A DNA stretch of 62,537 bases. It comes from Chloroflexota bacterium. Its GTDB lineage: Bacteria; Chloroflexota; Dehalococcoidia; JACPQF01. The stretch covers positions 1 to 62,537 of the forward strand of contig JACPQF010000075.1 in NCBI GenBank assembly GCA_016190625.1. Direction: 5' to 3'. Within the stretch, counting starts at the first letter, position 1, and each line of letters opens with the position of its first letter. The position numbers and the translations under genes are program-made. The notes beneath the pieces were generated by a model. It had not been told where the DNA came from, did no database searches, and was given only the letters and a program-made list of their open reading frames with translations. Shown here piece after piece: positions 28,304 to 58,679 of the stretch.

Positions 28304-29746
28304 CTAATCGGGAACCGGTTTCACTGCTCGCCGCCGCTCTTCACGCGCTGCAACATGGCGCTGGCGGGCAGTGTCCGGAATCAGGAAGACCACCGGCACG
28401 GCAAGAATCGAGACCAGCCCAAAAGCAAAGAATACCCCCTGCACGCCCATCGCCTGCTGCTGTTGCTCGAATTGGCTAGCTACCAGGATTACGATTGCCG
28501 TTCCGAACACGCCGCCCGTCGACCGGAACATGCCACGCAAGCCCACCATGGCCGCCACTTTTCCCGGCATCAGGTCTAGGCACGCGTTGTTGGAGGCCGG
28601 CGCCGCTATCCCTTGGCCCGCACCTGCGAGCAGGACTATGAGCGACAAGAGCACGAAATTCGGCACCTGCAGGCCCAGCAGAGACACGTCATGGAAGCCC
28701 TGACTAACCAGAAACAAACTCGGCGCGTTGAGCACCAGGCCCAGCACCATGGGTAGACGAAAGCCCCAGCGAATCACAAAGATGCTGCTCAACGCCGAAG
28801 CGGTCGCCATGGCCACCGAACGCGGCGCCAAAATCGAACCGCTTTCCGCCGCGCTCATCCCATAGGCCACGGTCGCATAATAAGGCACGAACGACGAAAA
28901 ACCGAACAGGACCAGCCCAAAGAGAAAATTGTAGATATTGCTAGCCGCGAGCGGGCGGCTGGTGAGCAACTCCAGCTCGATGACCGGCGAAGGGGTACGG
29001 CCCTCGTGCCAGAGGAATACTACCATGGCGACCATTCCCACGACGATAAGCATCAAGACCAGCGGGTGTCGGATAGACTGCGCGTCGTTGGCCCAGGCGG
29101 TCATCGCCAGCAAGATGGCGACCATCGAGCCGGTGAAAAGTCCACCGCCGATAGCGTCGACCCGCTTTCTCTGGCTCAGCAGCTTAGTCTGGGGGATAAG
29201 CGCTAGAGCGGCCAGGAATATGGCCACGGAGATCGGCACGCAACCATAGAACAACCAGCGCCAGGAGAAGTGGTCGATGACGAATCCCCCAATAGTGGGT
29301 CCGACCACGCCGCCGACGGGATAGATGCTAGAGAAGAGGCCGATGGCGGTGGCGCGCCGTTCGCCGAAAGAATCGCTTACTATGCTCGTTGCCGACGGCA
29401 ACTGGGCGCCAGAAGCGACCGCCTGCAGTATGCGGGCGAAGATGAGCACGTAAACGTTTGGAGCAAAGCCAGCCATGAAGGTGCCGACCGCAAAGCCGAC
29501 CATTGAGACGAAAAGCACCCGGCGGGCGCCCCATTCGTCGCTTATCTTGCCTGCCAATGCCATCGCGATGCCCTGAGCGAGCATGAATCCAGTCAGAGTC
29601 CAACCCACCCAGGCGAGGCTAGTATTCAAATCGTCCAGCATCCTCGGTAGGGCAACCGCAACTATGGTCCCATTGATCGAGGTAATCAGAAAGGCGGCGG
29701 ATACGATGCCAAAGACGATGTACGAACGGCGATTGGGCAGAGTCAT
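28304..29746 (-). CDS. MFS transporter, DHA2/EmrB-like (14 TM), paralog 1
   Basis: MTLPNRRSYIVFGI..., LAGKISDEWGARRV and FARILQAVASGAQLP motifs, with about 14 hydrophobic segments. Confidence 0.9.
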   Translation of the reverse strand: MTLPNRRSYIVFGIVSAAFLITSINGTIVAVALPRMLDDLNTSLAWVGWTLTGFMLAQGIAMALAGKISDEWGARRVLFVSMVGFAVGTFMAGFAPNVYVLIFARILQAVASGAQLPSATSIVSDSFGERRATAIGLFSSIYPVGGVVGPTIGGFVIDHFSWRWLFYGCVPISVAIFLAALALIPQTKLLSQRKRVDAIGGGLFTGSMVAILLAMTAWANDAQSIRHPLVLMLIVVGMVAMVVFLWHEGRTPSPVIELELLTSRPLAASNIYNFLFGLVLFGFSSFVPYYATVAYGMSAAESGSILAPRSVAMATASALSSIFVIRWGFRLPMVLGLVLNAPSLFLVSQGFHDVSLLGLQVPNFVLLSLIVLLAGAGQGIAAPASNNACLDLMPGKVAAMVGLRGMFRSTGGVFGTAIVILVASQFEQQQQAMGVQGVFFAFGLVSILAVPVVFLIPDTARQRHVAAREERRRAVKPVPD

Positions 29747-29999: not shown

Positions 30000-31436
30000 C
30001 TAATCGCGGGCCGGCGGCCCCGCCGCTCGCCGGCGCTCCCTCCGCGCCGCCACGTAGCGCTCGTGAGCAGAATCTGGAATGAGTAAAGCCAACGGCACGG
30101 CGAGCAAGCCAAGCAAGGCAAGTGCCAAGATTATCGTTTGCATGCCAGATGCCTGCTGTTCCCCAAATCGACTGGCTGCCAGTACAATCGCGGCTGTTCC
30201 GAGCAGGGCGCCCGTAGTCCGGAACGTGCCACGCAGCCCCACCGCAGCCGCTAGCTTTCCCGGCACCAGGTCCAGCGACGCGTTGTTAGAAGGTGGCGCC
30301 TGAATTCCATGTCCAAATCCTGCCATCATAACCATGGACGATAAGAGCACGAGGTTTGGCACTTGCAAGCCTAATAGCGATAGGTCGTGAAAACCCCGAC
30401 TGACCATGAGCATGCTCACCGAGTTGAGGACAAAGCCTAAAACCATCGGCATTCGATAGCCCCAACGCATCAGAAAGACGCTGCTAACGATCGAGGCAAT
30501 GGCCATGGCCGCGGAACGTGGCGCCAGGACCGCGCCGCTCTCGCCGGCGCTCATCCCGTAGACAACCGCCGCATAATAGGGAATAAAGGAAGAGACAGTA
30601 GACAGCACCAACCCGTATAGGAAATTGTAGAGGTTGGCCGCCACAAGTGAGCGACTGGTAAGCAGCTCAAGCTCGATCACCGGCGACGGAGTTCGCCCCT
30701 CATGCCAGAGAAATATGCCCAAAGCCACCGCGCCGGCGACGACGAGCAGCCAGGTGAGCGGATTTTCAATAGATTGCACGTCGTTTCCCCACGCCGTCAT
30801 CGCCGACAATATGGCCACCATGGAGCCGGAGAACAAGCCAACGCCGATCAAGTCAAGCCCCTTGCCTTGGCTGAGGGATTTGCTCGGCGGAATGAATGCC
30901 AAGCCCACGAGGTATAACGCCGCTCCGATAGGTGCGCTACCGTAGAACATCCACCGCCAGGAGAAGTGGTCGATAACGACTCCTCCGACGGTGGGGCCGA
31001 GTACACCACCCAAGGGAAAAATGCTGGTGAAGAGGCCAATGGCGGTCGCTCGCCGTTCGCCAAAGGCGTCGCTCACTATGCTCGTGGCCGATGGCAACTG
31101 GGCGCCTGCAGCGACTGCCTGCAAAATGCGCGCAAAGATGAGCACGTAGACATTCGGGGCAAATCCGGCGAGAATCGTGCTCGCGGTGAACACGATCATG
31201 GATACCGAGAATACCCGGCGGGCGCCCCAATCATCGCTCAGCTTTCCAGCCAGTGGCATGACAATACTTTGGCCCAGTTGGTAGCCCGTGAGGGTCCAGC
31301 CAACCCAGGTTAGACTAGTATCCAAATCCGCCAGCATCTTCGGAAGGGCAACCGCCACAATGGTGGCACTAACGGAAGTGATTGTCAAGCCAGCAGATAC
31401 GATGCCGAAAACAATATAAGAGCGCAGAGACGTCAT
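30000..31436 (-). CDS. MFS transporter, DHA2-like, paralog 2
   Basis: Homologous along its full length to paralogs 1 and 3. Start taken at MTSLRSY, 22 nt after the paralog 3 stop. The track start at 31556 is over-extended. Confidence 0.9.
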   Translation of the reverse strand: MTSLRSYIVFGIVSAGLTITSVSATIVAVALPKMLADLDTSLTWVGWTLTGYQLGQSIVMPLAGKLSDDWGARRVFSVSMIVFTASTILAGFAPNVYVLIFARILQAVAAGAQLPSATSIVSDAFGERRATAIGLFTSIFPLGGVLGPTVGGVVIDHFSWRWMFYGSAPIGAALYLVGLAFIPPSKSLSQGKGLDLIGVGLFSGSMVAILSAMTAWGNDVQSIENPLTWLLVVAGAVALGIFLWHEGRTPSPVIELELLTSRSLVAANLYNFLYGLVLSTVSSFIPYYAAVVYGMSAGESGAVLAPRSAAMAIASIVSSVFLMRWGYRMPMVLGFVLNSVSMLMVSRGFHDLSLLGLQVPNLVLLSSMVMMAGFGHGIQAPPSNNASLDLVPGKLAAAVGLRGTFRTTGALLGTAAIVLAASRFGEQQASGMQTIILALALLGLLAVPLALLIPDSAHERYVAARRERRRAAGPPARD

Positions 31437-31458
31437 CCTGCCTTCCGTCCGCCGATAG

Positions 31459-32895
31459 CTAATGGACAACCGGTGTCGCCCCACGCCGCCGCTCCCGCGT
31501 CGCGACAAAGCGCTGGCGGGCGGTGTCCGGGATCGCGAAAACGGCAGGCACGGCAACCAGGCCGATTAGGCCAAGAGCCAAGAATACCGTTTGCATGCCC
31601 TCTGCTTTCTGCGGCCCGAACTGGCTGACCACCAGAATAGTGGCCGCCATGCCGAACACGCCGCCTGTCGCCCGAAACATGCCCCGCAGTCCCACGGCCG
31701 CCGCGATCTGCCCCGGCACCAGGTCGAGAGAGGCGTTATTGGCCGGCGGCCCACACACTCCCTGTCCGAGGCCGGCCAGCATCACTATGGACGATAGCAG
31801 CACAACGTTGGGCACTTGCAGGCCCAACAAGGACAGATCGTGAAAGCCCTGGCTGACCAGGAACAAGCTCACCGAGTTGAGGACCAGGCCCAAGATCATG
31901 GGCATGCGATAGCCCCAGCGAATGAGAAGAACACTACTCACCGTCGAGGCGATGACCATTGCCGCCGACCGCGGCGCTAGCACTGCCCCGCCTTCCCCTG
32001 CGCTCATTCCGTAGGCAACCGTAGCATAATAGGGAACAAAAGAAGACAGGGTGAAAATCGAGACCCCGAAGAGGAAATTGTAGAAGTTGCTAGCCAGGAG
32101 AGGGCGATCGGTAAGCAACTTGAGCTCGATTACCGGCGCCGGACTGCGCTTTTCGTGTCGAAGGAACACCACCAAAGCGATCACTCCCGCGATGACGAGG
32201 AGCCACGTGAGAGGGTTTCGCATGGACTGAGCGTCATCGCCCCAGGCCGTCATTGCCGACAAGATGGCAACCATCGAGCCGGCGAACAGTCCGGCGCCGA
32301 CGACGTCCACCGGCTTTCCTCCTTCCAGGCGTTCACTCCGGGGAATGAGGGCCAATCCCGCGAGGAGAGTCAGAGCCGAGACTGGAACGCCCCCGTAAAA
32401 CATCCACCGCCAGGAGAAATGGTCGATGACAAACCCGCCGATGTTGGGGCCGATCACGCCACCCAGAGGATAGATGGCGGTGAACAGGCCAATGGCCGTG
32501 GCCCTTCGCTCGCCAAACCCATCGCTCGCTATGCTGGTAGCTGCCGGCAGCAGGGCACCCCCCGCAATTGACTGCAGCACGCGGGCAAAGATGAGGACGA
32601 ATATGTTGGGAGCAAACCCACAAAGAAAGGAACCGACCGTGAACAAGGCCGTTGCCCAAAGGAACACCCGCCGTGCTCCCCAATCGTCGCTCAGCTTGCC
32701 AGCCAGTGGCATGGAGACGCTCTGGGCCAACTGATAACCGGTCAGGGTCCAGCCGGCCCAGGCGAGGTTGGTTTCGAGATCTTCCATCATTTTCGGCAGG
32801 GCAACCGCCACCATGGTGTTGCTAATGGAACTGGTGAGAAAGCCAACGGATATGATGCCGAAGACAATGTAGGAGCGCCGGTTGGGCAATGTCAT
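31459..32895 (-). CDS. MFS transporter, DHA2-like, paralog 3
   Basis: The N-terminus MTLPNRRSYIVFGI is identical to paralog 1, with the same motif set. Confidence 0.9.
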   Translation of the reverse strand: MTLPNRRSYIVFGIISVGFLTSSISNTMVAVALPKMMEDLETNLAWAGWTLTGYQLAQSVSMPLAGKLSDDWGARRVFLWATALFTVGSFLCGFAPNIFVLIFARVLQSIAGGALLPAATSIASDGFGERRATAIGLFTAIYPLGGVIGPNIGGFVIDHFSWRWMFYGGVPVSALTLLAGLALIPRSERLEGGKPVDVVGAGLFAGSMVAILSAMTAWGDDAQSMRNPLTWLLVIAGVIALVVFLRHEKRSPAPVIELKLLTDRPLLASNFYNFLFGVSIFTLSSFVPYYATVAYGMSAGEGGAVLAPRSAAMVIASTVSSVLLIRWGYRMPMILGLVLNSVSLFLVSQGFHDLSLLGLQVPNVVLLSSIVMLAGLGQGVCGPPANNASLDLVPGQIAAAVGLRGMFRATGGVFGMAATILVVSQFGPQKAEGMQTVFLALGLIGLVAVPAVFAIPDTARQRFVATRERRRGATPVVH

Positions 32896-34854: not shown

Positions 34855-36300
34855 TTAGTCCGTCGTCGAGACAGCGTCCCGCCGCTGCTTGTCTCGCGCG
34901 GCCACAAAGCGCTGACGCGCCGCATCCGGGATGAGAAACACCAGCGGAATAGCTGCTAGGGCGGCGAGACCAAGTCCCAGAAACACCACCTTTAGTCCCA
35001 TTGCTTCATCCTGAAACTGGCTGACCACCAGGACGGTGGTCGCCAACCCGAACGTGCCGCCTGTCGAGCGAAACATGCCGCGGATGCCAACCACTGCTGC
35101 CACCTTCCCTGGCACGAGGTCCAGGGAGGCGTTGCTGGATGGCGGCGCCGCCGTCCCGTGTCCGAGGCCTAACAGCATCACTATCGCCGAGAGCAGCACA
35201 ACGTTTGGTATCTGCAGACCCATGAGCGATGCGTCGTGATAGTACTGGCTTACCAGCAGCAAGCTCGTCGCACTGAAGAGAAAGCCCAAGATCATCGGGA
35301 AGCGATAGCCCCAGCGAATGAGGAACACGCTGCTCACCGTCGAGGCGGCTATCATTGCCAATGAACGGGGCGTCAGGATCATGCCGCTCTCTGCGGCGGT
35401 CATGTCATAGACTTTAGTGGCCAAATACGGGATATACCCCATTGCGCTGAACAGCACAAGTCCGTAGAGAAAGTTATACAAGTTCGTCGCCAGAAACGGG
35501 CGAGTGCGGAGCAGTTCCAGCTCGATTATCGGCGAGGGAGTGCGGCCCTCGTGCCGCAGGAATAACACCAGGATGATCAGGCCGACGACAGCCACCACCC
35601 AGGTAGTCGGGTTCCCGAGAGATGTTGTATCGTTGCTCCAAGTGGTCATGGCCGCCAGGACGGCGACCATACCGCCGGCGAAGAGGCCGATGCCGAAGGT
35701 ATCTACCTGCTTGCCCCCGGCGGACCGTCCTCCCCGGGGAATGAGCACTAGCCCGAGGAGAAATATGATGGCCCCAAAGGGGATGTTGCCGTAGAACATC
35801 CAGCGCCAGGAGAAGTGGTCGATGATAAACCCGCCGATGTTGGGGCCGATCACGCCGCCGATTGGCATGACCGAGGTGAACATGCCGATGGCGGCCGCCC
35901 GGCGGTCGCCAAAGCAATCGCTTACGATACTCGTCGCCGAAGTCATCAGGCCGGCATGCGACAGCGCCTGCAGCATACGAGCGAGAACAAGAACGTAGAC
36001 GTCGGGCGCCGCTCCCGCCAGAATAGAGCTGAAGACGAAGAGCACCACCGCCCCCAGGAAAACCCGGCGGGCCCCCCAATCGTCGGCTAGCTTACCCGAG
36101 ATCGGCATGAGTATGCTCGAAGCGAGCTGATAGCCGGTCAGCGTCCAGCCTACCCAGGCGAGGTTGGTATCCAAGTCCTTCAGCATAGTCGGAAGAGCAA
36201 CCGACACAATGGTACCCGTTATGGAGGTCATCAGGAAACCACCGGACAGAGCCGCAAAGATCAAGTAGGCTCGCCTGTCAACCAAGCTCATCTCTCGCAC
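34855..36300 (-). CDS. MFS transporter, DHA2-like, paralog 4
   Basis: Same architecture and motifs (ISGKLADDWGARRV). The start may be ATG 36291 (MSLVDRR). Confidence 0.9.
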   Translation of the reverse strand: MREMSLVDRRAYLIFAALSGGFLMTSITGTIVSVALPTMLKDLDTNLAWVGWTLTGYQLASSILMPISGKLADDWGARRVFLGAVVLFVFSSILAGAAPDVYVLVLARMLQALSHAGLMTSATSIVSDCFGDRRAAAIGMFTSVMPIGGVIGPNIGGFIIDHFSWRWMFYGNIPFGAIIFLLGLVLIPRGGRSAGGKQVDTFGIGLFAGGMVAVLAAMTTWSNDTTSLGNPTTWVVAVVGLIILVLFLRHEGRTPSPIIELELLRTRPFLATNLYNFLYGLVLFSAMGYIPYLATKVYDMTAAESGMILTPRSLAMIAASTVSSVFLIRWGYRFPMILGFLFSATSLLLVSQYYHDASLMGLQIPNVVLLSAIVMLLGLGHGTAAPPSSNASLDLVPGKVAAVVGIRGMFRSTGGTFGLATTVLVVSQFQDEAMGLKVVFLGLGLAALAAIPLVFLIPDAARQRFVAARDKQRRDAVSTTD

Positions 36301-36350: not shown

Positions 36351-36388
36351 GCAGTATAGCCTGCTCTTACGGTTACGTCAAGGTTAGA
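36351..36388 (-). promoter_or_regulatory. conserved 38-nt promoter/operator block, copy C
   Basis: -35 at 36376-36381 and -10 at 36353-36358 (minus strand). Confidence 0.7.
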
Positions 36389-36426: not shown

Positions 36427-36475
36427 GAGAAAAGACACAGGCGAGAGAATGGCATTTGCTGTCATCTCTCGCCTG
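36427..36475 (-). terminator. intrinsic terminator after the cytochrome gene
   Basis: Stem CAGGCGAGAGA / TCTCTCGCCTG followed on the minus strand by TGTCTTTTCTC. Confidence 0.6.
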
Positions 36476-36500
36476 CGCGATGCTCACGTGATCTTACGAA

Positions 36501-38522
36501 CTATCTAGCGTGTACCTTGCTTACGGCGAACTCACGCCCCTCATTGTGGCAGACTTTGCAGCTCTCAGCGCCGTCCACAGTCTGAGCAGCGGCATGAGTC
36601 TTGGCCGGCCCACTGTCGTGGCAGCCTGTACAGGCAGCCGTGATCGGCGGTATCGAGGTGACGACCTTATCGCCAACTTTCACCGTCGTCGGAATGACAC
36701 CCCGAGCGAAGTTCAGCAACTGGGAGCCGGGCACGTGGCACTTCTCGCAGTTCCGTCGGTCGCCTGGGAAGCGCACCTCAGACAGATCGATCGGTCGGAC
36801 GTTGCTTGCGCCTCCGCCATAGATGACGAGCTTATCGTTCTGCTCCTCGCCGGTGTGGATCTTGTGGATCAACCGCTTGAAGTCGATAGGCTCGGGTGGC
36901 AGCGGGCCGCCAACGGATGCTCTCTTGACAGCGTCGCTGTTGTTGGGATTGTGGCAGAGCACGCAGAACTCCGTGTTGACGCGGCTACCGCCGTGCAGCG
37001 CCAGCTTCTCGTGGCAGACGTTGCAGTTATTGACGTCGACGATCTGTTTGCGCGACTGAGCTACAGTGCCGGTCACGGCGGCGTACGCAACCTTGTTGAA
37101 CCCAACGTTCCGAGCTGCAACTGTATTGCCTGCCCAATCCTTGAGATTCTGATTCAAGATGCCCTGAACACCTGCCGCATACGTGCCTGTGGCGTCAGCG
37201 GGTATCTTTGCCGTGAAGGTGTAGCTGTAGTTGCCGTCACCAGTCGCCGTGGCGCCGGTGGCCGTCTCTGCTACGGGAATGGTAGCATAGTCGGTGGTCG
37301 GCCCGGAAAGGACGAAAGATAGGCTGGACATCTCCGATGGTTTGATGGGCTGGCCGGCGTTGTCCTTGATATTGAACACAACCGTCGGCGACTGGCCGGG
37401 CTTCGCCGTCAAGTTCACGATCTCGAAGTTGACTCCCCTCAGTTGTTTCGACCGGTCGGGAATCGTGTGAGCTCCGGTCACCGATAGGTCAAACTCCTGG
37501 CCGTCCGCCGGGTGGCAGGTTTTGCAAGCCGTATTGGGCTGTGCGCCACCGCCATGATTGGCGCCTGTCTGGAAGTTGACATTGTCGTGGCAGGCCCCAC
37601 AGGCCTCGGCGCTGGGTTGAGTCTTCCATACATCGCCCTGCTTTCCTTTATGGCAGGTCGTGCAATTGCGGGTATCCTGCGGAAAGACGATGTCGCTGAA
37701 ATTGTGATTCTCGCCGCCGATAAAGTAGGCCTTGCCTGCCTTCACGCTGGGAAGATTCGCTCCGCTATGGATTTTGTGGACGAGAACACGGAATTCCACG
37801 GAGTTTCCGCTTTGCGGGTCGACGTTTTGCCCGGTGTGGCAGGTTACACAGTAATCAGTTTCCCGACGCGTCGTTCCGTGAACGGCCAGCGGATCGTGGC
37901 ATTGATTACAGGCCGCTGTCGTGACAACCTCCCGCTGGGCTTTCGTTCCGCCTGACGGAACAAAATCGAAGGTAGCATTGCTAACGGCTGCCCGATTGTC
38001 TCGCGTGACCTGGCTACCGATGCGATACGTGGCCGCCGGGTCGAATCCGGCTGGCACGGCAGCCTTGAACGCGTACTGAAACGAGCCGCCGCCCTGGTCG
38101 GTAAACGTTCCGCCGCTATCGGCGCCAGGCTGAGTCGCGGTGTCGAGAGCGGGCTTGCGAGTCTCGCCCTTGAACACGAAATCCCTTCCCTGAACCTGAT
38201 TCACGACGAAGTTTTCCCAAAAGGTGCGCCCGGTACCTGTCTCCTGCTTGAGCACGGCAATGTCGAACCGCAGGCTGTTGGCGTCGACATCGGTCAGGCG
38301 AAGCGGGCTTCCCTTGGCGTCGGTCAGCTTGAACGACACCACGGGCTTGCGGTCGCCGGGAATGGACGCGCTGGTGATAGCCAGCTTCACGCCACCTGTA
38401 GCCGGCGTAGATTCACCATTCACGACCGAGTTGGAATGAACAAGCTGATACACAACCATGAACAGGGACAATGTTACGATTGAGCCGACGATTGTCAGAA
38501 TCGTTCTGACGCGATGGTGCAT
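36501..38522 (-). CDS. membrane-anchored decaheme c-type cytochrome (MtrC/OmcA-like four-domain architecture)
   Basis: Ten CxxCH motifs arranged 5 + 5 around beta-rich segments, with an N-terminal TM helix. RBS AGGAGGGAGA. Start taken at MHHRVRT, so the track start at 38684 is over-extended. Confidence 0.9.
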   Translation of the reverse strand: MHHRVRTILTIVGSIVTLSLFMVVYQLVHSNSVVNGESTPATGGVKLAITSASIPGDRKPVVSFKLTDAKGSPLRLTDVDANSLRFDIAVLKQETGTGRTFWENFVVNQVQGRDFVFKGETRKPALDTATQPGADSGGTFTDQGGGSFQYAFKAAVPAGFDPAATYRIGSQVTRDNRAAVSNATFDFVPSGGTKAQREVVTTAACNQCHDPLAVHGTTRRETDYCVTCHTGQNVDPQSGNSVEFRVLVHKIHSGANLPSVKAGKAYFIGGENHNFSDIVFPQDTRNCTTCHKGKQGDVWKTQPSAEACGACHDNVNFQTGANHGGGAQPNTACKTCHPADGQEFDLSVTGAHTIPDRSKQLRGVNFEIVNLTAKPGQSPTVVFNIKDNAGQPIKPSEMSSLSFVLSGPTTDYATIPVAETATGATATGDGNYSYTFTAKIPADATGTYAAGVQGILNQNLKDWAGNTVAARNVGFNKVAYAAVTGTVAQSRKQIVDVNNCNVCHEKLALHGGSRVNTEFCVLCHNPNNSDAVKRASVGGPLPPEPIDFKRLIHKIHTGEEQNDKLVIYGGGASNVRPIDLSEVRFPGDRRNCEKCHVPGSQLLNFARGVIPTTVKVGDKVVTSIPPITAACTGCHDSGPAKTHAAAQTVDGAESCKVCHNEGREFAVSKVHAR

Positions 38523-38989
38523 TCTTCTCTCCCTCCTACAGATTACGGTGCAGGCTACGTAATCTCGGTTCTCATTATCGTTGCTACGTGATAACCGATG
38601 GCCCGGACTTCTGACCTGACCTTCCGACCTTTGCCTGCCTTCCACCACGCAGTAGAAGTCCCCGATTCTCCTATTCCATCGCAATCACCCCCCTTTCCCA
38701 CCAGGTCGGTCGCCAGCAGGCCATTAGCTGCCTTGACAGGCAAAAGAAGAAAGCCCATGGCTGGGCACGTGAGCCGCCAAGCCATAGGCGTTCATCATTG
38801 CCTACAGTCGGGATGCCAACGTCAACATCCACTGGTTCGACCTTATGCTAGTGCGATTGAGTTATAGCATACACACGAACCAAATACAACGGGTTGCCGG
38901 TCTAATTGTAAAGTAATTCACGAATCGATATCGGCAGAAAAGGGCCTGTTTGGCTATCAATCGTATCCTTTCGCCATCGCACTGTCCTG

Positions 38990-39181: not shown

Positions 39182-39363
39182 CATTACTTTCATGAGATGA
39201 TCATGGTCGAGTCGTCGTATCCCGCCAGAAAACCAGGGATGGAAAGTAGCATTTGTCAGTTCTCAGCCGAATTGGCACAGATGTTGCATCCCTTTGATAT
39301 CACTGCTCTTTGAAGACCGATGGAAAAGACAGGCTTAGGCCTGCAGACATGAGGGTGAGCGCG

Positions 39364-40482
39364 ATGGTACGACGACAGAAGTTGGTTTTCGCCACAGTTA
39401 TCTTGGCTGCCGCACTCCTGTTGCTGCCAGCCTCGGTCGCGACGTTTCCTTCGCCCGGCGCCGTTCGCGGCCCAACAGGTGATAGCATCTCCTCTCTGCC
39501 GTCTGAGGATGATGGCGCGGCAGAGCCGGCGCGCGCCAGGTTCCTCAAACCCGGGCCGTCACAGGTGGCGGTCGGGTCCTTGGCCAACGGCGACCAGCTT
39601 CAAGTTGTGTCCAAGATAACCCACTCTTTCATCAGTTGGCGACCTGAAGATTTGCCGTCAATCGAGAACGCCGCACGCAAAGCCACGGAAAACGGCCAGG
39701 TGGCCATGATCAGTTGGGAGCCGAGGCTAGCCGAGAGACCCGATCCTTCGTCCACAGGCCCCGACCGACTCGTTCTGCAACGCATCGCCGATGGCGAGCT
39801 TGACGACTACATCAGAGATGCGGCCCGCGTCCTGAAAGGTAGCTCACAGCCCATCATCCTGCGTTTCGCCCACGAGATGGACCTGCCCTTCGACAATTAT
39901 CATGGCTGGTACGGCCTGGCGCCAGATGTCTACATCGTCGCTTTCCGGCACGTCCACGACATCTTCGCCGAGGAGCAGGTCGACAACGTCATCTGGCTAT
40001 GGTCTCCTGGAGGGCGCCTCGACGATAACGGCAAGCTCACCTCTCTAGCGTGGTATCCGGGCAATGACTACGTGGACATGGTAGGCCTCTCGGTATTTGT
40101 GTATTGGCGGTGGGAGGAGATAGTCTCGCCGAGCAGGCAGCCGGCGCATTCCTTTCGGTCTCCCCAAGAGGCCATCGAGCCGGCGTACAGAGATCTAGCG
40201 CTGCTGAACAAGCCCATAATCCTCGCCGAGGTCGGGGCGGATCTTCATCCTAGTCGAAAGGGCGAAAGAGCTCGCTGGCTGTTATCCCTTCTCGACCTGG
40301 TCAAGCAGCCGTCCTTCGACAAGATCGTGGCGGTCGTCTTCTTCAACGCCCCTCACCCCGTCGACAACTACAGCGCCGACTGGCGCCTTGGTCCCGACGA
40401 AATGAACGCGGTCATAAATGCCATGAAGGGCGACGCGTTGTTTGATGCCGGGCCACGGCAGGATAGTGGAAACACGCCATAA
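39364..40482 (+). CDS. secreted glycoside hydrolase, GH26-like (beta-mannanase/endoglucanase COG4124-like)
   Basis: ISWEPR, LRFAHEMD, WLWSPGG, YPGNDYVDMVGLS and ILAEVGA. Signal-peptide-like MVRRQKLVFATVILAAALLLL. Alternative starts at 39349 and 39310. Confidence 0.65.
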   Translation: MVRRQKLVFATVILAAALLLLPASVATFPSPGAVRGPTGDSISSLPSEDDGAAEPARARFLKPGPSQVAVGSLANGDQLQVVSKITHSFISWRPEDLPSIENAARKATENGQVAMISWEPRLAERPDPSSTGPDRLVLQRIADGELDDYIRDAARVLKGSSQPIILRFAHEMDLPFDNYHGWYGLAPDVYIVAFRHVHDIFAEEQVDNVIWLWSPGGRLDDNGKLTSLAWYPGNDYVDMVGLSVFVYWRWEEIVSPSRQPAHSFRSPQEAIEPAYRDLALLNKPIILAEVGADLHPSRKGERARWLLSLLDLVKQPSFDKIVAVVFFNAPHPVDNYSADWRLGPDEMNAVINAMKGDALFDAGPRQDSGNTP

Positions 40483-40535: not shown

Positions 40536-40925
40536 TCATGGGGCAGCGAACTTCCGCTTCAAACTTGAGCCGCCCCGGCTCTCATGGATACTCCGATCTA
40601 GGACCTCTCTGACGTTGGCCCGGAGTGCCGGTAGCTTGTTGACAACCACATCCCACACGATGTCAAAGTCAACGCCAAAGTAGCCATGAATGAGACGATC
40701 GCGCATTCCTGCCGTGGCGCGCCATTCGATGGCAGGATACTTCTGGCGGAAGGAAGGAGGGATCTGCTTAACCGCTTCGCCAATAATCTCAATGCTGCGT
40801 ACCCAGGCGCGCTTAAGGGTCTCATCCTCCAAGAATGTTGCCATTTCGAGTCCTTTGGCGCTCCTTAAGAGAAAGTCCGCCTCGTCCATAATATGCTGGA
40901 GGTATTCACGCACCGACAGGGGCAT
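40536..40925 (-). CDS. hepT: HepT-like (DUF86) ribonuclease toxin
   Basis: Rx4HxY motif RDRLIHGY. Overlaps the upstream MntA gene. Confidence 0.85.
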   Translation of the reverse strand: MPLSVREYLQHIMDEADFLLRSAKGLEMATFLEDETLKRAWVRSIEIIGEAVKQIPPSFRQKYPAIEWRATAGMRDRLIHGYFGVDFDIVWDVVVNKLPALRANVREVLDRSIHESRGGSSLKRKFAAP

Positions 40926-41217
40926 ACTCAACCTCGCGTAGGATATACGGGCCGATGTACGGACTCAACGACTCAGTTGTGATGAGATCGACTGGCCGTC
41001 CAAACAAATCTTCGAGGTAGAAGGCAATCTGCATAAAGTGGTCAAATGTCTTCTGACCCGGCTCGAAGTCGACGAGGATATCAACGTCACTCTGATCCCT
41101 CGAAACATTCCGCACGAACGAGCCAAAGAGACCGCAGCGCCGCACGCCCAGTCGCCGCAGCTCCGCATGGTGCTTCTGCAAAAGAGCCAGGATTTCTTCT
41201 TTGTTTTGAACTGTCAT
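40906..41217 (-). CDS. mntA: MntA-type nucleotidyltransferase antitoxin
   Basis: LFGSFVRNVSRDQSDVDILVDF (GSx10DxD). Confidence 0.85.
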   Translation of the reverse strand: MTVQNKEEILALLQKHHAELRRLGVRRCGLFGSFVRNVSRDQSDVDILVDFEPGQKTFDHFMQIAFYLEDLFGRPVDLITTESLSPYIGPYILREVEYAPVGA

Positions 41218-41388: not shown

Positions 41389-41973
41389 CTAGCCGGCGTG
41401 AGGCACCCAACTTATGTCCAGTATCGTATTCGTCGGATTCTCCGTGCGGAAGCGGGCTTCCACCTGCATCCCGATGGTGGGAGTCCCGTGCTCCAAGCAG
41501 CCCTTGAAGATGGTGCAAACGCCGGGCAGCTCGACGTCCACCTGATAATAGGGCGTTGTCGGCTCGATAGCGGTGCCAGCGTACTCCACACGGGCGTAGG
41601 TATGCACCGTACCGATCACGGGTTGCAGTATCTCCTGCCAGGCCATGGGCTGGTTGCAGTCCGGACAGTCGGCCCGGGGCGGCAGCCAGAGCCTCTTCTC
41701 CTCGCACTCAGGATTGACACACCTGGTGGCCAATAGTCTGCCTTCGGTTAGGGCCTTGAAGAAGGGGGTCAGTTTCCCATAGGTGTGCCTGTGAGTCAAG
41801 CTTCTCGGCCACTCGATCACCACGGCGCGCTCCGAAGACAGCACTGTGGCAGGTTCGCCGATGTATTTGGTACATTCATCAGTCGATTTCATCTTTTTCC
41901 CCTCTGTCATATCTCTGCGAGTGACCAGCAGGCGATCAATCGTATCGCTGTGGTCGCCGTCCGTTCCCGCCAT
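41389..41973 (-). CDS. DUF35 Zn-ribbon/OB-fold protein
   Basis: CVNPECEEKRLWLPPRADCPDCNQPM zinc ribbon followed by an OB-like segment. The start is uncertain (internal MTEGKK or MKSTDE). Confidence 0.7.
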   Translation of the reverse strand: MAGTDGDHSDTIDRLLVTRRDMTEGKKMKSTDECTKYIGEPATVLSSERAVVIEWPRSLTHRHTYGKLTPFFKALTEGRLLATRCVNPECEEKRLWLPPRADCPDCNQPMAWQEILQPVIGTVHTYARVEYAGTAIEPTTPYYQVDVELPGVCTIFKGCLEHGTPTIGMQVEARFRTENPTNTILDISWVPHAG

Positions 41974-48601: not shown

Positions 48602-49735
48602 TCAACGCCGTAAGATCAGCGTAGCGTGGGTGGTGAGTATGCCGCCTTGGCTGCTGGCGATGGCGATTTCGGCATTGTTGACCTGTCTCGGGCCGCACTC
48701 GCCACGCAGTTGGCGTACCGCCTCGACGAGCAACAGCATCCCCGGCATACCGCTCTCGGATAGCAGGCCCCCCGCCGTGTTGCATGGTAGCTCGCCGCCG
48801 AGTTCTATGCGCCCATTCTGGACAAACGATCCCCCCTCGCCCTTCTTGCAGAAGCCGTAGTCTTCCAGCGTAACGAGCGCGGTATAGGTGAAGCAGTCAT
48901 AGATCTCGGCCAGGTCGATATCCTTCGGGGACACGCCGGCCATCTTGAACGCCATCTCGCCAGAGCGCTTGGCGCCGGTAACGGTCAGGCTCTCCCTCTG
49001 AGCGATGTCCCACGCTGGGTGCGCCTGTCCCCAACCCATCACGTAAACCGGCTTCTTGTTCAGCGTTTTCGCTCGCTCGGCAGAGGTTACAACTACCGCC
49101 GCGCCTCCATCTGAGACGAGGCAGCAATCGAGCAGATGGAAAGGCTCGACTACCCAACGGGATCTCTGATGATCTTCCAGCGTTATGGGCTTCTGCATCT
49201 GGGCATTGCGATTCATTGAGGCATGCTTGCGGAAAGCAACGGCGATAGCGCCCAGTTGCTCACTTGTGGTGCCATACTCTTTCATGTGACGTCTTGCGGC
49301 CATTGCGTATCCGGCAGGCGCGCCGACGAAGCCAAAGGCGGCGTCGTCACTATTTACCCTGCCGTAGGTTCCGGGCGGTCCTGTTAGCGGATTATCCCCA
49401 TAGCTGCATACCACAGTGGTCGCCAGGCCGGCGTCGATGGCCATGGCAGCATACTGAACCATTGTACCGATTGTCGCACCAGCTAGGTCGATAACCGCCA
49501 TCAGCTTGTTCGTGATTCCTAGGGCCTGACATAGTTTTCCAGAGAAGAGCGAACTAAAGCCTGAGGTCGGATACTTCACCAGAACGCCGTCCACGTCCTC
49601 GCGTGTCAAACCGGCATCTTCCAACGCCGCCTTGATTGCTAGCACGTTAAAACCTATCGAGCTGACGCCGGGTACCTTCCCCAGCTTAGTATGCCCCACA
49701 CCAACAATAGCATATTTGTCTCCTAGGGAGCCCAT
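48602..49735 (-). CDS. thiolase-like protein (SCP-x / lipid-transfer-protein type)
   Basis: YAIVGVGHTKLGK, LLDCCLVSDGGAAVVV and NTAGGLLSESGMPG. Confidence 0.85.
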   Translation of the reverse strand: MGSLGDKYAIVGVGHTKLGKVPGVSSIGFNVLAIKAALEDAGLTREDVDGVLVKYPTSGFSSLFSGKLCQALGITNKLMAVIDLAGATIGTMVQYAAMAIDAGLATTVVCSYGDNPLTGPPGTYGRVNSDDAAFGFVGAPAGYAMAARRHMKEYGTTSEQLGAIAVAFRKHASMNRNAQMQKPITLEDHQRSRWVVEPFHLLDCCLVSDGGAAVVVTSAERAKTLNKKPVYVMGWGQAHPAWDIAQRESLTVTGAKRSGEMAFKMAGVSPKDIDLAEIYDCFTYTALVTLEDYGFCKKGEGGSFVQNGRIELGGELPCNTAGGLLSESGMPGMLLLVEAVRQLRGECGPRQVNNAEIAIASSQGGILTTHATLILRR

Positions 49736-49749
49736 TGCCACTTCCTTTC

Positions 49750-50523
49750 TCATCTCCCTTTCCAAACAGGCTTTCGCTTGGCCTTAAATGCTTCACGTCC
49801 CTCGACGGCATCCTCGGTTTCCTGCAAGAGGCTGCCAAGAAACCCTTCGAGCTTGATGCCTTCGTTCAGCGTCAGGTCATAACCCTTTATCGCAGCCTCC
49901 TTGATCGCCCGCACAGCTAAGGGGGGGCAATCGAGCAACCTCCGGGCGTAATCGAGGGCGGTGGGCATTAGTTCCTCCTTGGGCACGATCTTGTTTAACA
50001 TGCCCAGACGATAGGCTGCCTGAGCGTCAATACGGTCGCCGATGAGGAGGAGTTCCATAGCCAGGGGATAGGGTAACTGACGAATGGCCCGCTGGGTACC
50101 ACCGTTTCCTGGGAGGATGCCGCGCTTGACTTCTGAAAGGCCGAAGGTGGCGTGCTCGGCCGCGACGCGGATGTCACAAGCAAACAGCAGAGTAAGCCCG
50201 CCGCCCAGACAGTAGCCGTTCACGGCGGCGATCACCGGCTTGAACACGTCTAGGCCGCGGTTCAGAATGGGGAAAGGCGGGCGAATGAAGTAAGCTTCGG
50301 ACGGGCTCATGCGCCCGAAATTCGTCTTGAGGTCCGCCCCCGCCGAAAAGGCCCGATCCCCGGCGCCGGTGATGACCGCCACCCACATGTCCGGATCGTC
50401 GCGGAAGTCGACCCAGGCCTCCGAAATGCGCTGGTACATGTCCGGATCCATGGCGTTCATGGCCTCCGGCCGATTCATGGTAAGGAAAGCAATGTGGTCT
50501 TTTTTCTCGTAGATTAGTCCCAT
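49750..50523 (-). CDS. enoyl-CoA hydratase/isomerase (crotonase) family protein
   Basis: AFLTMNRPEAMNAM, VITGAGDRAFSAGADL and AAVNGYCLGGG. The track start at 50790 is over-extended. Confidence 0.9.
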   Translation of the reverse strand: MGLIYEKKDHIAFLTMNRPEAMNAMDPDMYQRISEAWVDFRDDPDMWVAVITGAGDRAFSAGADLKTNFGRMSPSEAYFIRPPFPILNRGLDVFKPVIAAVNGYCLGGGLTLLFACDIRVAAEHATFGLSEVKRGILPGNGGTQRAIRQLPYPLAMELLLIGDRIDAQAAYRLGMLNKIVPKEELMPTALDYARRLLDCPPLAVRAIKEAAIKGYDLTLNEGIKLEGFLGSLLQETEDAVEGREAFKAKRKPVWKGR

Positions 50524-50548
50524 GGTTCCGCCTTTCCTATTGCTAGTC

Positions 50549-51700
50549 CTAGTCGCGAAGCAAGTTGCGCGCGATGATGAACCGGTGAATCTCCGAAGGG
50601 CCCTCCCCGATTCGCATGACCCGAGCCTCACGATACCATCTCTCCAGAATGAGATCCTTCGATACCCCAAGACCGCCGTGAATCTGAATTGCCCTGTCGA
50701 CCACACGTCCGACCATCTCCGTGGAATAGACCTTGGCGATGGAGGCCTCGCTGCGCACGTCTTCGCCTCTCTCCGCCTTGAAGGCGGCATCCCAAGTGAG
50801 CCAGCGGGCTGCCCGCAGTTCTATTTCCGAATCAACCAGCATCCACTGGACCGCCTGCCGTTCGGCTAACAATCGGCCAAAGGTGGTCCTCTGCTTGGAG
50901 TAATCGATGGCCATCTTAAGGCTTCGCGACGCCATACCAAGCGGACGGGCGGCGTAGGTGATGCGGCCGTGAGTGAGGAAGTCCTGTGCCAGCATGAAGC
51001 CACGGCCAACTTCGCCTAGCCGGTTGGCATCCGGCACCACACAGTCCTCTAACACCAACTCGGAAGGATAGAGAGGCCTTATCACCTCCACGAGTCGGGC
51101 GACCTTGAATCCCGGCGTGCCTTTGTCGACCAAAAAGCAGGTTACGCCGTTCCGACCGGTGGTCCCGGGGATTCGCGCGAAGATCATGACGAAGTCGGCC
51201 TTATCACCCCCGGTGATGAAGATCTTGGTGCCGTTTAGGATCCAGTTGTCGCCATCTCTCACGGCGGTGGTGGCCAGCATCGAGGGATCGGCGCCCGCCC
51301 CGGGTTCGGTTTGGCCGAAAGCGGATTTCTTCTCGCCACGAATTGAAGGATAAAGGTAATGCTCCTTCTGGTCTTCGGTGCTTTCGTAGAGGGCCGCCGG
51401 TATGTCGCCACCGAATATGGGAGTGGAGGTGCCGGTGAGTACCCAGAGGCAGTGTCCCATCTCCTCGCCCACGATCACCTGCCCGAAGAGGCCAATACCC
51501 GGTCCGCCGAACTCCTCCGGAACGTCAAGGCACCACAGGCCCATCTCCTTAGCCATACCCTGCAGTCGGCCGATATGTGGCTCGGGAATCTCCACCGTGT
51601 CGACGGGCAACTCCTTTTCCAACGGGATGACCTCGCTATAGACGAAGCGCCTCACCGTGTCGCGCAGCATCTTCAACTCTTCCGGGATTTCGAAAGCCAT
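50549..51700 (-). CDS. acyl-CoA dehydrogenase
   Basis: FGQTEPGAGADPS, ITGG and IHGGLGVSKDLILERWYREARVMRIGEGPSEI. Confidence 0.9.
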   Translation of the reverse strand: MAFEIPEELKMLRDTVRRFVYSEVIPLEKELPVDTVEIPEPHIGRLQGMAKEMGLWCLDVPEEFGGPGIGLFGQVIVGEEMGHCLWVLTGTSTPIFGGDIPAALYESTEDQKEHYLYPSIRGEKKSAFGQTEPGAGADPSMLATTAVRDGDNWILNGTKIFITGGDKADFVMIFARIPGTTGRNGVTCFLVDKGTPGFKVARLVEVIRPLYPSELVLEDCVVPDANRLGEVGRGFMLAQDFLTHGRITYAARPLGMASRSLKMAIDYSKQRTTFGRLLAERQAVQWMLVDSEIELRAARWLTWDAAFKAERGEDVRSEASIAKVYSTEMVGRVVDRAIQIHGGLGVSKDLILERWYREARVMRIGEGPSEIHRFIIARNLLRD

Positions 51701-51711
51701 AACGTCTCCTT

Positions 51712-52962
51712 TCACAATGGTTCATCGCCGATGACCCCTTCTCGCCTCAAAGCGTCTCGTTCCTCACGCGACAGGCCTAAGATTTCGCCGAGTACGAAGT
51801 CGTTATGCTCGGCGAAAAGAGGCGGCGGCCGATGGATGCTTCCCGCGGTCTTGCTCAGCTTCCAAGCAACCCCCGGATAGGGGTAGGTTCCGGTGGCGGA
51901 ATGGAAAACGTTCTCAAAATAGCCACGGGAGACAAAATGCGGATTCGCCAGGATCTGCCTGATATTGAGGACGGCCGCGGCGGGAACCCCCGCTTCTTGG
52001 AGGATATGCATCACTTCGTCGTTGTCATGGCGTCGAGTCCATTCGTCTACCAGTTGGTCGAGATCGTCACCGTGGCGCCAGCGACTACTGGCACCAGTAA
52101 ACCGGTTGTCCTGCGCCAACCCAGGCTTGTCCATAGCCCGACAGAAGGCCTGCCATTCCTGGTCGTCGCTTACGGCGATGGCGACCCAGTTATCCTCGCC
52201 CTTGCAGCGATAGCAACCATGAGGCGCCATAGATGGATGGCGGTTTCCCTCCCGGCGCTGGACGCGGCCATTCATCGTGTAGTCCATGACTGCGTCGCCG
52301 AACATTTGGATGAGACTCTCGCGCAGGGACAGATCCACATATTGCCCCCGTCCCGTTTTGTTTCGGTATCGGATCGCCGCCAATAGGGCAAATGCGGCAA
52401 ACATACCCCCCGTAGGGTCGCCATAGGCAATGCCAGGCTTGAGAGGCGCCCCGTCAGCATAGCCTGTTAGGTCGGAGCATAAGGCCATTGCTTCGGTGCC
52501 CGTTCCATAGGTTACATAATCCCGATAGGGCCCCGACATGCCATAGCCGGGCATGGACACCATAACGAGGTCTGGCTTGATCGCACGCAGGGTTCCATAG
52601 TCGAGGCCGAAGTTTTTCATCACACGGGCGCTGTAGTTCTCGACCACCGCGTCGCTTACCTTCACCAGCTTGTTGAATACCTCTTTGCCCGTCGCATGAG
52701 TTAGGTCCAGAGTGATGGCATACTTGCTCCGGTTGAGCTCGTTGTAGTAGGCACCCCTGTTGTAGGGTTCGTCCCCTGGCTTGTCGTCGGGAAACATGCC
52801 TGTACCGGGGGCAACCGGTCCGTGGGGCCTGTCACATCGCACGCAGGACTCGATCTTAATGACCTCTGCCCCCATATCGGCGAGCAACTTCGTCGCATAG
52901 GGCCCGGCAAATACCTGCGTCAGATCTGCGATTCGCAACCCCTCAAGAGCCAGCCTAGGCAC
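51712..52962 (-). CDS. family III CoA-transferase (CaiB/BaiF family)
   Basis: LEGLRIADLTQVFAGPYATKLLADMGAEVIKIE. Confidence 0.9.
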   Translation of the reverse strand: MPRLALEGLRIADLTQVFAGPYATKLLADMGAEVIKIESCVRCDRPHGPVAPGTGMFPDDKPGDEPYNRGAYYNELNRSKYAITLDLTHATGKEVFNKLVKVSDAVVENYSARVMKNFGLDYGTLRAIKPDLVMVSMPGYGMSGPYRDYVTYGTGTEAMALCSDLTGYADGAPLKPGIAYGDPTGGMFAAFALLAAIRYRNKTGRGQYVDLSLRESLIQMFGDAVMDYTMNGRVQRREGNRHPSMAPHGCYRCKGEDNWVAIAVSDDQEWQAFCRAMDKPGLAQDNRFTGASSRWRHGDDLDQLVDEWTRRHDNDEVMHILQEAGVPAAAVLNIRQILANPHFVSRGYFENVFHSATGTYPYPGVAWKLSKTAGSIHRPPPLFAEHNDFVLGEILGLSREERDALRREGVIGDEPL

Positions 52963-53009
52963 TCTATTCCACCTTCCCCAAATAATCGAGAGTCCTTCTC
53001 TATCCTACC

Positions 53010-54197
53010 TCACACCACTCCCAACTCCCCTAGTCTCACTAAATCATCCTCCGCATATCCCAAACGCCCACCCAGAGTCTCGGTTGTGTGCTCCCCCAGA
53101 AGAGGGGCTCGTCCCGCCTGCCAGGGTGTCTCGCTCATCTTAAACGGCGCTCCCGGGTAGAAGATGGGGCCCGTCACCGGGTGATGGATCTCGGCGAAGA
53201 AGTCGCGACTGCTGAACTGAGGGTCGTCGAGCAGCTCGTCGACGCGGCAAACTATGGCAAATGGCAGACGCCAGAGCTGGGCCATAGCGAAGATCTCCTG
53301 CTTGTTGTGCTGCATTAGCCACGGCAGGATGAGGGCGTCGATCTCGTCGGCGTGCACTCTCGGCGCCTTTTGCAACTCCTCGTCCAACAGGCGTGGCTCG
53401 TCTACAAAAGCCGCCAGGCGCTCCCACTCATGAACTGCGCCGTGCACATGGACGTAGCCATCTTTGCAGGGCAAGATCGTCGACGGATAGGCGACGTGAT
53501 GGCGAGCTCCATTGCGAGTTCTGATCTGGCCAGTGTAGTTGTGCATCATGGTTGTGGCTTCCATTATCGAGGTTATGCATTCGACCACCGCGATGTCCAC
53601 GTGCTGGCCAATGCCCGAGACATCGCGACAGTAAAGGGCGGTTAACGTGGCTACGGCGGCGTTAAGGCCGGCCTGCATCTCGGCCTGCGAACCGCCCGTT
53701 TTTAGCGGCTCCCGCTCTGGGAGGCCGGTAACGTGCATTAGACCACCAAGGGCGAGGGCAATCATGTCCGAGCCTTTGTAGTCGCGGTAAGGCCCTGTTT
53801 GTCCAAAATAGGAGATGGAAGTGACAATGATGTCGGGTTTAATTGCCTCCAGATCCTCGTAGCCCAGGCCTAGGCTGGTCATGACGCCGGGAGAAGAGCT
53901 TTCCACCACTATGTCGGCCTGTTTGACTAGCTTCTTGAAGATACTGGCGCCGGTTTGGCAGGCAATGTCGAGGGTTAGGCTCTTCTTATTGGTATTGAGG
54001 AAGAGGAAGGTCCCACTGCGCTCCGGCCCCGGATGATCCTCGAGACAAGGGCCGAGGCGGCGCGTCGGCTCGCCTGAGAGGGGTTCCACCTTAATCACTT
54101 CGGCACCAAAATCGGCCAGCAATTTGGTGCAAAAAGCCCCCGAGATACCCTGGCTGAGGTCGAGAACCAGCATACCAGTTAGAGCCTGATCATGCAC
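53010..54197 (-). CDS. family III CoA-transferase (CaiB/BaiF family)
   Basis: LTGMLVLDLSQGISGAFCTKLLADFGAEVIKVE. GTG 54197 with GGGAGGG 6 nt upstream. The track start at 54341 is over-extended. Confidence 0.85.
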   Translation of the reverse strand: MHDQALTGMLVLDLSQGISGAFCTKLLADFGAEVIKVEPLSGEPTRRLGPCLEDHPGPERSGTFLFLNTNKKSLTLDIACQTGASIFKKLVKQADIVVESSSPGVMTSLGLGYEDLEAIKPDIIVTSISYFGQTGPYRDYKGSDMIALALGGLMHVTGLPEREPLKTGGSQAEMQAGLNAAVATLTALYCRDVSGIGQHVDIAVVECITSIMEATTMMHNYTGQIRTRNGARHHVAYPSTILPCKDGYVHVHGAVHEWERLAAFVDEPRLLDEELQKAPRVHADEIDALILPWLMQHNKQEIFAMAQLWRLPFAIVCRVDELLDDPQFSSRDFFAEIHHPVTGPIFYPGAPFKMSETPWQAGRAPLLGEHTTETLGGRLGYAEDDLVRLGELGVV

Positions 54198-54370
54198 GAA
54201 AGACCCTCCCTTACGAGCCTGTTCACTCCAATGGCTTCGAGTGGAAACACCCTCAAAGCATCTTTGTCGCACCGCTCTCCCCAGTAGATATATGCTTGGA
54301 ATGTCATACGTTGCTTGATAGTAACAGAGGCTTCGCCCCAAGTCAATTCACCAGTTGATCCAATGATCAT

Positions 54371-58669: not shown

Positions 58670-58679
58670 CTTGGCCTCC

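Follow-up and report, generated by a model that had tools for sequence, protein, structure and literature searches.

A solitary MtrC/OmcA-family decaheme cytochrome of a Dehalococcoidia-like bacterium, a candidate terminal electron-transfer module for an envelope without an outer membrane

The stretch of DNA analysed here in its whole length of 62,537 nucleotides (the window; contig JACPQF010000075.1 of a Chloroflexota bacterium) carries at positions 36501 to 38522 of its reverse strand a gene for a decaheme c-type cytochrome related to MtrC and OmcA, the textbook terminal reductases of mineral respiration. We regard it as practically certain that this protein is a true homologue of MtrC, OmcA and MtrF and a member of the OmcA/MtrC family. 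It is also fairly probable, judging from its sequence and predicted structure, that in an envelope that has no outer membrane it would work, extracytoplasmically or at the surface, as a terminal module of electron transfer supplied by a quinol oxidase whose gene lies elsewhere. The gene had earlier been described from the letters of the DNA alone, in what we call the sequence-only reading.

The family assignment comes from profile and structure comparisons that agree with each other. The NCBIfam profile TIGR03507 matched the protein with 483.1 bits (cutoff 209.3) over profile positions 7-672 of 672, and Pfam PF22113 (MtrC-MtrF_II-IV) matched it in two stretches with 180 bits against a cutoff of 30. 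The closest relatives by sequence in the PDB were MtrF (2.4e-29) and OmcA (2.4e-23), followed by MtrC and UndA. An AlphaFold2 model built from 55 homologues (predicted local distance difference test, pLDDT, 91; predicted template modelling score 0.83) consists of an N-terminal helix (residues 2-30), a disordered linker (30-39, pLDDT <50) and then beta, heme, beta and heme domains. When this model was compared with the PDB by Foldseek, all 15 of the top matches were MtrC, OmcA, UndA or MtrF, with template modelling (TM) scores of 0.60-0.70; the 14 full-length entries aligned over 656-838 columns with 18-22% identity in the structural alignment, and beyond the top 15 there were only spurious beta-sandwich matches with a TM score of about 0.13. 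The likeness to MtrC and OmcA that the sequence-only reading had proposed is thus supported by both the hidden Markov model (HMM) searches and the structure, more strongly than it had been claimed, and no HMM or fold match places the protein with the nitrite- or hydroxylamine-type multihemes. The gene and its parts are as follows.

36501..38522, reverse strand: complete gene for an OmcA/MtrC-family decaheme c-type cytochrome of 673 residues, identified by its open reading frame (ORF), ten CxxCH motifs, TIGR03507 and fold; stop codon at 36501-36503
38439..38504, reverse strand: N-terminal export signal (residues 7-28), the sole hydrophobic segment, either a signal anchor or a cleavable Sec signal peptide, followed by the low-confidence linker 30-39
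37953..38393, reverse strand: domain I, beta-barrel (about residues 44-190), model strands 46-187 with pLDDT >90, paralogous to domain III
37458..37937, reverse strand: domain II, pentaheme (about residues 196-355), with CNQCH, CVTCH, CTTCH, CGACH and CKTCH; PF22113
37068..37445, reverse strand: domain III, beta-barrel (about residues 360-485), model strands 365-482, without a CX8-15C disulfide
36504..37052, reverse strand: domain IV, pentaheme (about residues 491-673), with CNVCH, CVLCH, CEKCH, CTGCH and CKVCH; best PF22113 stretch at 492-671

The translated reading frame holds ten CxxCH motifs and no more, at residues 205, 225, 287, 308, 333, 500, 520, 592, 631 and 655, in exactly the sequences and order listed before, and they take up all 20 cysteines of the protein. 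All ten are invariant in the alignment of the 55 homologues. The two pentaheme halves had been taken for an internal duplication, and they do align with each other (domain II versus domain IV, 33% identity, E = 2e-23), as do the two beta domains (domain I versus domain III, 25% identity, E = 3e-5). The proposed beta-pentaheme-beta-pentaheme order is also that of the model, in which the strands at 46-187 and 365-482 alternate with the heme domains. Besides the histidines of the motifs, exactly ten are invariant or near-invariant across the homologues, five in each pentaheme domain (215, 249, 252, 323 and 352 in domain II; 510, 553, 556, 643 and 671 in domain IV). Since this is the number required, the pattern fits a predicted bis-histidine ligation of all ten hemes.

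The cytochrome gene has no partner genes beside it. A six-frame scan of the window found it to be the only multiheme reading frame, and Pfam searches, which covered nearly all of the larger ORFs of the window, gave no match to a porin (MtrB/PioB), MtrA-like cytochrome, Ccm/Ccs or outer-membrane marker gene, so that the earlier statement that no porin, periplasmic decaheme or Ccm gene lies nearby was borne out. The Rfam and tRNA scans of the window gave no matches. We compared eight contexts of the clade to which the protein belongs, the window and seven related ones (L044-L051). In all eight the gene is solitary, with no MtrA-like or porin gene and no recurring neighbour that might serve as electron donor or anchoring partner. 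The sole exception is L047, the contig of the closest relative, where a distantly related tandem paralogue of 748 residues that the window does not have is located directly upstream (L047:417-2663; 23-30% identical to our protein, TIGR03507 133 bits, which is below the cutoff, and an extra CxxCH, CIICH, at about residue 43). A tblastn search of the 787-bp intergenic region upstream of the gene in the window found no remnant of this paralogue, only the cytochrome gene being matched. A NarI-like and CCG pair in L044 was considered as a partner and rejected, as it is part of a corrinoid methyltransferase cluster and is not conserved.

The start of the gene was placed at the ATG at 38522 in preference to an upstream TTG at 38684 because a homologue with 73% identity (P0002) opens with the identical MHHRVR. 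The signals around the gene are the following.

38527..38535, reverse strand: Shine-Dalgarno sequence AGGAGGGAG, 5-13 nucleotides 5' of the ATG, read from the sequence
36427..36478, reverse strand: intrinsic-terminator-like hairpin (36435-36478, stem of about 16 bp) with the U-rich tail CUUUUCUC (36427-36434)
36353..36381, reverse strand: promoter-like site TTGACG-17-TATACT, a consensus match only (10/12), between the terminator and the downstream major facilitator superfamily (MFS) gene

The terminator region (101 nucleotides) folds with -40 kcal/mol (z = -3.83), and none of 200 shuffled sequences was equally stable. A simple consensus scan for terminators had passed over the hairpin at 36435-36478, the loop of which is interrupted; this negative result was set aside, as direct reading and folding of the region show the hairpin to be real. 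The promoter-like site suggests that the downstream MFS gene would be a separate transcription unit, and the upstream neighbour of the cytochrome gene, a GH26-like gene at 39310-40482, is in divergent orientation. Given the hairpin, the promoter-like site before the MFS gene and the divergent upstream gene, the cytochrome gene looks monocistronic, and the ribosome-binding site and terminator of its own that it had been credited with were both recovered.

The host is, as judged by the RecA encoded in the window, an uncultured Chloroflexota bacterium of a Dehalococcoidia-like kind. The named matches of this RecA are all from Dehalococcoidia or Chloroflexota metagenome-assembled genomes (MAGs), the best with 89% identity, which upholds what had been a supposition, and the nearest homologues of the cytochrome carry Chloroflexota or Dehalococcoidia labels as well. 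The gene matches the window in GC content (0.591 and 0.594), and across the cytochrome and MFS genes the locus is collinear, with 70% DNA identity, with L047, a contig from a Dehalococcoidia MAG. The gene therefore looks native, and a recent horizontal acquisition is unlikely.

From the family, the fold, the conserved heme motifs and ligands, the export signal, the solitary gene and the host phylum we infer a localisation, a mode of retention, an electron donor, a direction of flow and a substrate. The protein would be exported by the Sec system through its N-terminal signal and would be loaded with heme at the outside of the cytoplasmic membrane, after which it would be tethered by the uncleaved signal or be released into the wall or S-layer space. 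There it would be exposed at the surface as the last link of a chain for extracellular electron transfer. A quinol oxidase of the membrane (a NapC/NrfH/CymA-like multiheme or a b-type cytochrome), the gene for which would lie in another part of the genome, would deliver the electrons, and the hemes of the protein would hand them on to an acceptor outside the cell, for instance Fe(III) or Mn(IV) oxides, humics or a partner cell. With no cysteine pair in domain III, the flavin/O2 redox switch of the Shewanella type would be absent. Chloroflexota are generally regarded as lacking an outer membrane, so an MtrA/MtrB conduit would not be needed, which would explain the solitary gene.

Several points weigh against this picture of a terminal module at the cell surface. 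The electron donor is absent from the window, and no recurring neighbour in the clade suggests one. The case for retention at the surface is weakened in that the N-terminus may be cleaved, and both the lipobox and the collagen-like tether that occur among its relatives are missing from the protein. The type of envelope is assumed from the phylum, and the window holds three tandem genes of the GT9 (heptosyltransferase) family at 9723-13272 (forward strand), which are odd for a supposedly monoderm member of the Chloroflexota, as GT9 is best known from the synthesis of the lipopolysaccharide (LPS) core. Finally, no experimental study of members of this Chloroflexota/Dehalococcoidia clade was found in the literature.

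The question of how the protein would be held at the surface turns on its N-terminus. The sequence-only reading had described a single N-terminal transmembrane helix and no lipobox; the single hydrophobic segment and the lack of a lipobox (there is no cysteine outside the CxxCH motifs) stand, but retention as a transmembrane anchor was not established. If the signal were cleaved, the protein could be, instead of a terminal reductase tethered to the membrane, a soluble extracytoplasmic carrier or shuttle that is either secreted or moves freely in the space of the wall or S-layer. The hydrophobic stretch is immediately followed by two candidate sites for signal peptidase I that obey the (-3,-1) rule, VHS|N and SNS|V, and members of the clade share a motif of small residues, [IVTSA]-[QH]-S, at this position; furthermore, classical short cleavable signals ending in AYA|Q occur in the family (P0036-P0040 and P0054). 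The length of the hydrophobic core was dropped as a discriminator between anchor and cleaved signal because the median is 21 residues both in the query clade and in the lipobox relatives, which must be cleaved and yet have an equally long core; this length is thus uninformative in these organisms, and the equality is in keeping with cleavage. On the other side, there is no helix-breaking proline or glycine and hardly any polar c-region ahead of VHS|N, the explicit tethers of the sister groups (a lipobox or a hydrophobic helix, with a collagen-like stalk) suggest that retention is important, and a free 70-kDa cytochrome would escape from a cell that has no outer membrane. An uncleaved anchor and a cleaved signal appear roughly even from these features of the N-terminus, and we hold the soluble carrier as a whole to be possible but rather unlikely.

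The N-termini of the relatives are of three types. In the first, a lipobox is followed by a collagen-like G-x-y run of 30-60 residues, and in the second a cysteine-free hydrophobic helix is followed by the same kind of run (P0028, P0050, P0056, P0060, P0063, P0072 and L007:6604-8736). The third type consists of a hydrophobic stretch and a short linker, as in the query clade, or of the classical short signal ending in AYA|Q in Binatia-like members. With what looks like a transmembrane anchor ahead of a stalk, the second type would be the best indirect support for transmembrane anchoring in the OmcA/MtrC family. A collagen-like run of 30-60 residues (lipobox, run and then domain I) is present in about 60% of the 120 best homologues (P0019, P0021-P0026, P0029-P0035 and others; L035:9797-10576; the N-termini in L036, L030 and L040), where it is recognised by Pfam Collagen and by weak NCBIfam matches to Scl/Lcl adhesins. 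Besides Chloroflexi and Anaerolineaceae MAGs, the hosts include gammaproteobacterial and Geomonas members. Such a stalk could trimerise and might place the decaheme part 9-17 nm off the membrane; nothing relevant was found in the literature on collagen-like tethers of multiheme cytochromes. A different peculiarity is seen in the N-termini of P0004-P0012: most members of the query clade have an n-region of the type T/S-R-R-x-hydrophobic (ITRRIAV, FTRRTAV) that resembles a twin-arginine motif, the corresponding residues being HHRVR in our protein. A twin-arginine motif would be unexpected here, as c-type cytochromes are normally exported by Sec.

The same architecture could also work in the opposite direction and take up electrons from Fe(II), reduced humics, a cathode-like mineral or a syntrophic partner, and this we judge to be improbable. 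The heme chains of the OmcA/MtrC family are reversible in principle, but the sequence carries no sign of direction and the characterised four-domain MtrC/OmcA proteins are reductases. Also counting against uptake, the Fe(II)-oxidising MtoAB/PioAB systems are, to our knowledge, typically without an MtrC-type component. The gene content of the window is neutral in this respect, with plentiful genes of acyl-CoA metabolism and beta-oxidation and no obvious genes for anaerobic respiration. In favour of uptake, there are other lineages in which Fe(II) is oxidised with the help of decaheme homologues of Mtr (discussed in PMC3669403), and a cultured member of the Chloroflexota, Ardenticatena maritima, is capable of anodic as well as cathodic electron transfer (PMC5808234).

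An ordinary outer-membrane MtrC, whose partners MtrA and MtrB would be encoded at other loci of a host possessing an outer membrane, is in our view very unlikely. It would agree with the many homologues of Acidobacteriota that are likewise unlinked to an MtrA-like gene and with the three GT9 genes of the window, which are matched by two GT9 genes near the homologue in L049 (L049:15213-17644; Fmt is also found there, so that this locus is in loose synteny with the window). Against it stand the missing lipobox that sorting of an outer-membrane lipoprotein would need, the absence of porin and MtrA-like genes in all eight clade contexts and of any outer-membrane marker gene in the window, and the host phylum itself, as Chloroflexi are treated as monoderm and reported to be without LPS, BamA and porin-cytochrome complexes (PMC7399161, PMC5808234). 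A periplasmic catalytic multiheme of the NrfA/HAO/OcwA type that is MtrC-like only in the spacing of its motifs has next to no probability and was rejected, since very weak, sub-threshold matches to NrfH, DsrJ and HmcA over single heme motifs are outweighed by the TIGR03507 score, with all other models far under their cutoffs, by the conserved distal histidines for all ten hemes, which leave no open catalytic site, by the lack of a CxxCK motif and by the absence of NrfA or HAO structures among the fold matches.

The surface module proposed here for the query protein has relatives in rather different settings, as seen when the features were mapped on a neighbour-joining tree. Members from Gammaproteobacteria and Desulfuromonadales have a lipobox, a cysteine pair at the domain-III position (L036, L030 and L041) and a decaheme gene adjacent or nearby, with an MtrB/PioB match of 365 bits in L036. 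Those from Acidobacteriota are mostly without a lipobox, have the cysteine pair in few cases and in about half of the cases are directly followed by a decaheme cytochrome of 311-392 residues and a heme-free ORF of about 700 residues. In the Chloroflexota-rich clade with the query, all three N-terminus types occur, there is no non-motif cysteine except that of the lipobox, and an MtrA-like neighbour was not seen in the query clade. The third ORF of the Acidobacteriota loci (heme-free, about 670-870 residues; L011:12786-14987, L012:12370-14994 and L037:12710-14707) gave no or only sub-threshold matches to Pfam MtrB_PioB (0 families in L011, 19 bits in L037); should it encode a porin, the sequence would have diverged too far for the current model.

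Two further observations concern individual relatives. Homologues with 45-46% identity are found on contigs binned as archaea (L007, labelled a Bathyarchaeia MAG, and P0103, labelled Thaumarchaeota archaeon), which could be due to mis-binning or to real transfer; in L007 a divergent decaheme of 380 residues is encoded divergently beside the homologue. In a Chloroflexia MAG (L035:826-11939, CAVQYN010000027.1), the MtrC-family gene lies beside a multiheme cluster without a porin, which encodes a nine-heme DmsE-like protein, a 593-residue fusion with FdnI-like cytochrome b, a 12-heme protein with an NrfH/NapC-like N-terminus, a cytochrome b6/ExtP-like protein and a ten-heme protein. The MtrC-family gene itself, with a collagen-like N-terminus, is split (9797-10576 and 10350-11939) by a frameshift or an assembly error. 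From its gene content this cluster is a candidate for a complete monoderm electron-export pathway and, by analogy, could serve as a concrete model for the electron supply chain of our protein.

The remaining content of the window includes the housekeeping proteins RecA, RecX, RNase Y, Fmt and MutL, envelope glycosyltransferases, four MFS transporters, a HepT/MNT pair and abundant acyl-CoA metabolism. The four paralogous MFS_1 genes are arranged near-tandem (28304-29746, 30000-31556, 31459-32895 and 34855-36300, reverse strand) and are 65-74% identical at the DNA level to MFS genes in L047; the last of them is located directly downstream of the cytochrome gene. Farther downstream of the GT9 genes are a GT2 gene, a methyltransferase, a DUF2079 protein and a PTPS-related membrane protein of 1290 residues. 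About 2 kb upstream of the cytochrome gene (40536-41217, reverse strand), a HepT-like RNase and an MNT-type nucleotidyltransferase are encoded with a 26-nt overlap, as is typical of a type VII toxin-antitoxin system. The acyl-CoA genes (41389-41973, 58208-59180 and 48602-61530, reverse strand) repeatedly encode DUF35/ChsH2-type OB-fold proteins, SCP-x-type thiolase-like proteins, family III CoA-transferases, enoyl-CoA hydratase and acyl-CoA dehydrogenase, which amounts to a large repertoire resembling side-chain beta-oxidation of steroids or branched chains.

What is new here is the context of the protein (its anchoring, the loss of its partners and its host) and not the type of protein, a variant that is abundant and automatically annotated in public data. 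The novelty attached to it by the sequence-only reading was overstated, as NCBI and JGI already label close relatives "OmcA/MtrC family decaheme c-type cytochrome" (in Chloroflexi, Dehalococcoidia, Anaerolineaceae, Binatia and Acidobacteriota), and the family comprises 814 clusters at 50% identity with E <= 1e-30 and 1909 with E <= 1e-10. Previous work has discussed MtrC homologues for Acidobacteria (PMC3669403, PMC9671151) and has used mtrC as a marker in MAG tables (e.g. PMC9326234). For MtrC/OmcA in Chloroflexota, Dehalococcoidia or Anaerolineae, our literature search found gene-presence tables only and no dedicated account of the solitary clade. Tentatively, the protein could be placed in a large, Chloroflexota-centred radiation of MtrC/OmcA proteins that was re-engineered for an envelope without an outer membrane, with loss of MtrAB and of the flavin-gating disulfide and with the lipid anchor replaced by a signal anchor (query clade) or by a lipobox or transmembrane helix together with a collagen-like, possibly trimerising stalk (sister clades).

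If this is true, a surface "wire end" encoded by a single gene could allow mineral respiration, or an exchange of electrons with partner cells, in Dehalococcoidia-like bacteria, which are usually seen as living by fermentation or organohalide respiration. In Chloroflexota, including the present Dehalococcoidia-like genome, MtrC by itself is conserved and occurs widely, without its partners and without the oxygen/flavin switch, and this suggests that the decaheme "staggered cross" is a module that can be carried from one type of cell envelope to another and put to use differently in each. Provided that the protein is functional at the surface, extracellular electron transfer would extend to an abundant subsurface and soil lineage, and the gene would be a partner-free candidate, in one piece, for heterologous expression.

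Among the known systems, relatives of the protein from Chloroflexota and Dehalococcoidia MAGs, such as P0002 (73% identity), P0005 (62%) and P0012 (56%), share its clade, length and N-terminal type, have no non-motif cysteine and are solitary. The mtrCAB-type loci of Gammaproteobacteria and Acidobacteriota MAGs (L036, L030, L011, L012, L037 and others) belong to the same NCBIfam/Pfam family with 33-45% identity, but there the gene is directly followed by an MtrA-like decaheme of 311-441 residues and a heme-free ORF of about 670-800 residues, neither of which is found in the query clade; the Acidobacteriota members resemble our protein in that they mostly have no lipobox and no extra cysteines. 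In a recent survey, Baker et al. did not detect mtrCAB in organisms without an outer membrane, concluded that the module is restricted to bacteria that have one, and pointed out that the proteins would need to be adapted to another envelope (PMC8805035). Surface multihemes without a porin-cytochrome complex have been proposed by the same logic for Ardenticatena maritima and for Anaerolineales genomes from bioanodes, but the proteins in question are a seven-heme protein and very large multiheme cytochromes, and MtrC/OmcA is not mentioned in either report (PMC5808234, PMC7399161).

The likeness to the Shewanella proteins MtrC, MtrF, OmcA and the undecaheme UndA (PDB 4lm8, 6qyc, 3pmq, 4lmh and 3ucp) consists of homology over the full length, the four-domain order, the duplication, ten CxxCH motifs with bis-histidine ligands and a predicted fold that superimposes with a TM score of 0.6-0.7. 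In contrast to these, the protein shares only 18-22% identity with them in the structural alignment, lacks a lipobox as well as neighbouring mtrA and mtrB genes, and belongs to a Chloroflexota host rather than to a Gram-negative proteobacterium. The Shewanella outer-membrane multiheme cytochromes all have a conserved CX8-15C disulfide in domain III that gates the binding of flavin mononucleotide and protects against O2-dependent damage (PMC4486940). Compared with that account, the protein has neither the domain-III CX8-15C nor the domain-I CX2-3C, and the non-motif cysteine pair for the domain-III disulfide is absent from its whole clade. As read from the sequence and the model, three hallmarks of the Shewanella proteins, the lipobox, the disulfide and the linkage to MtrAB, are thus missing, while the fold and the cofactor architecture have been kept.

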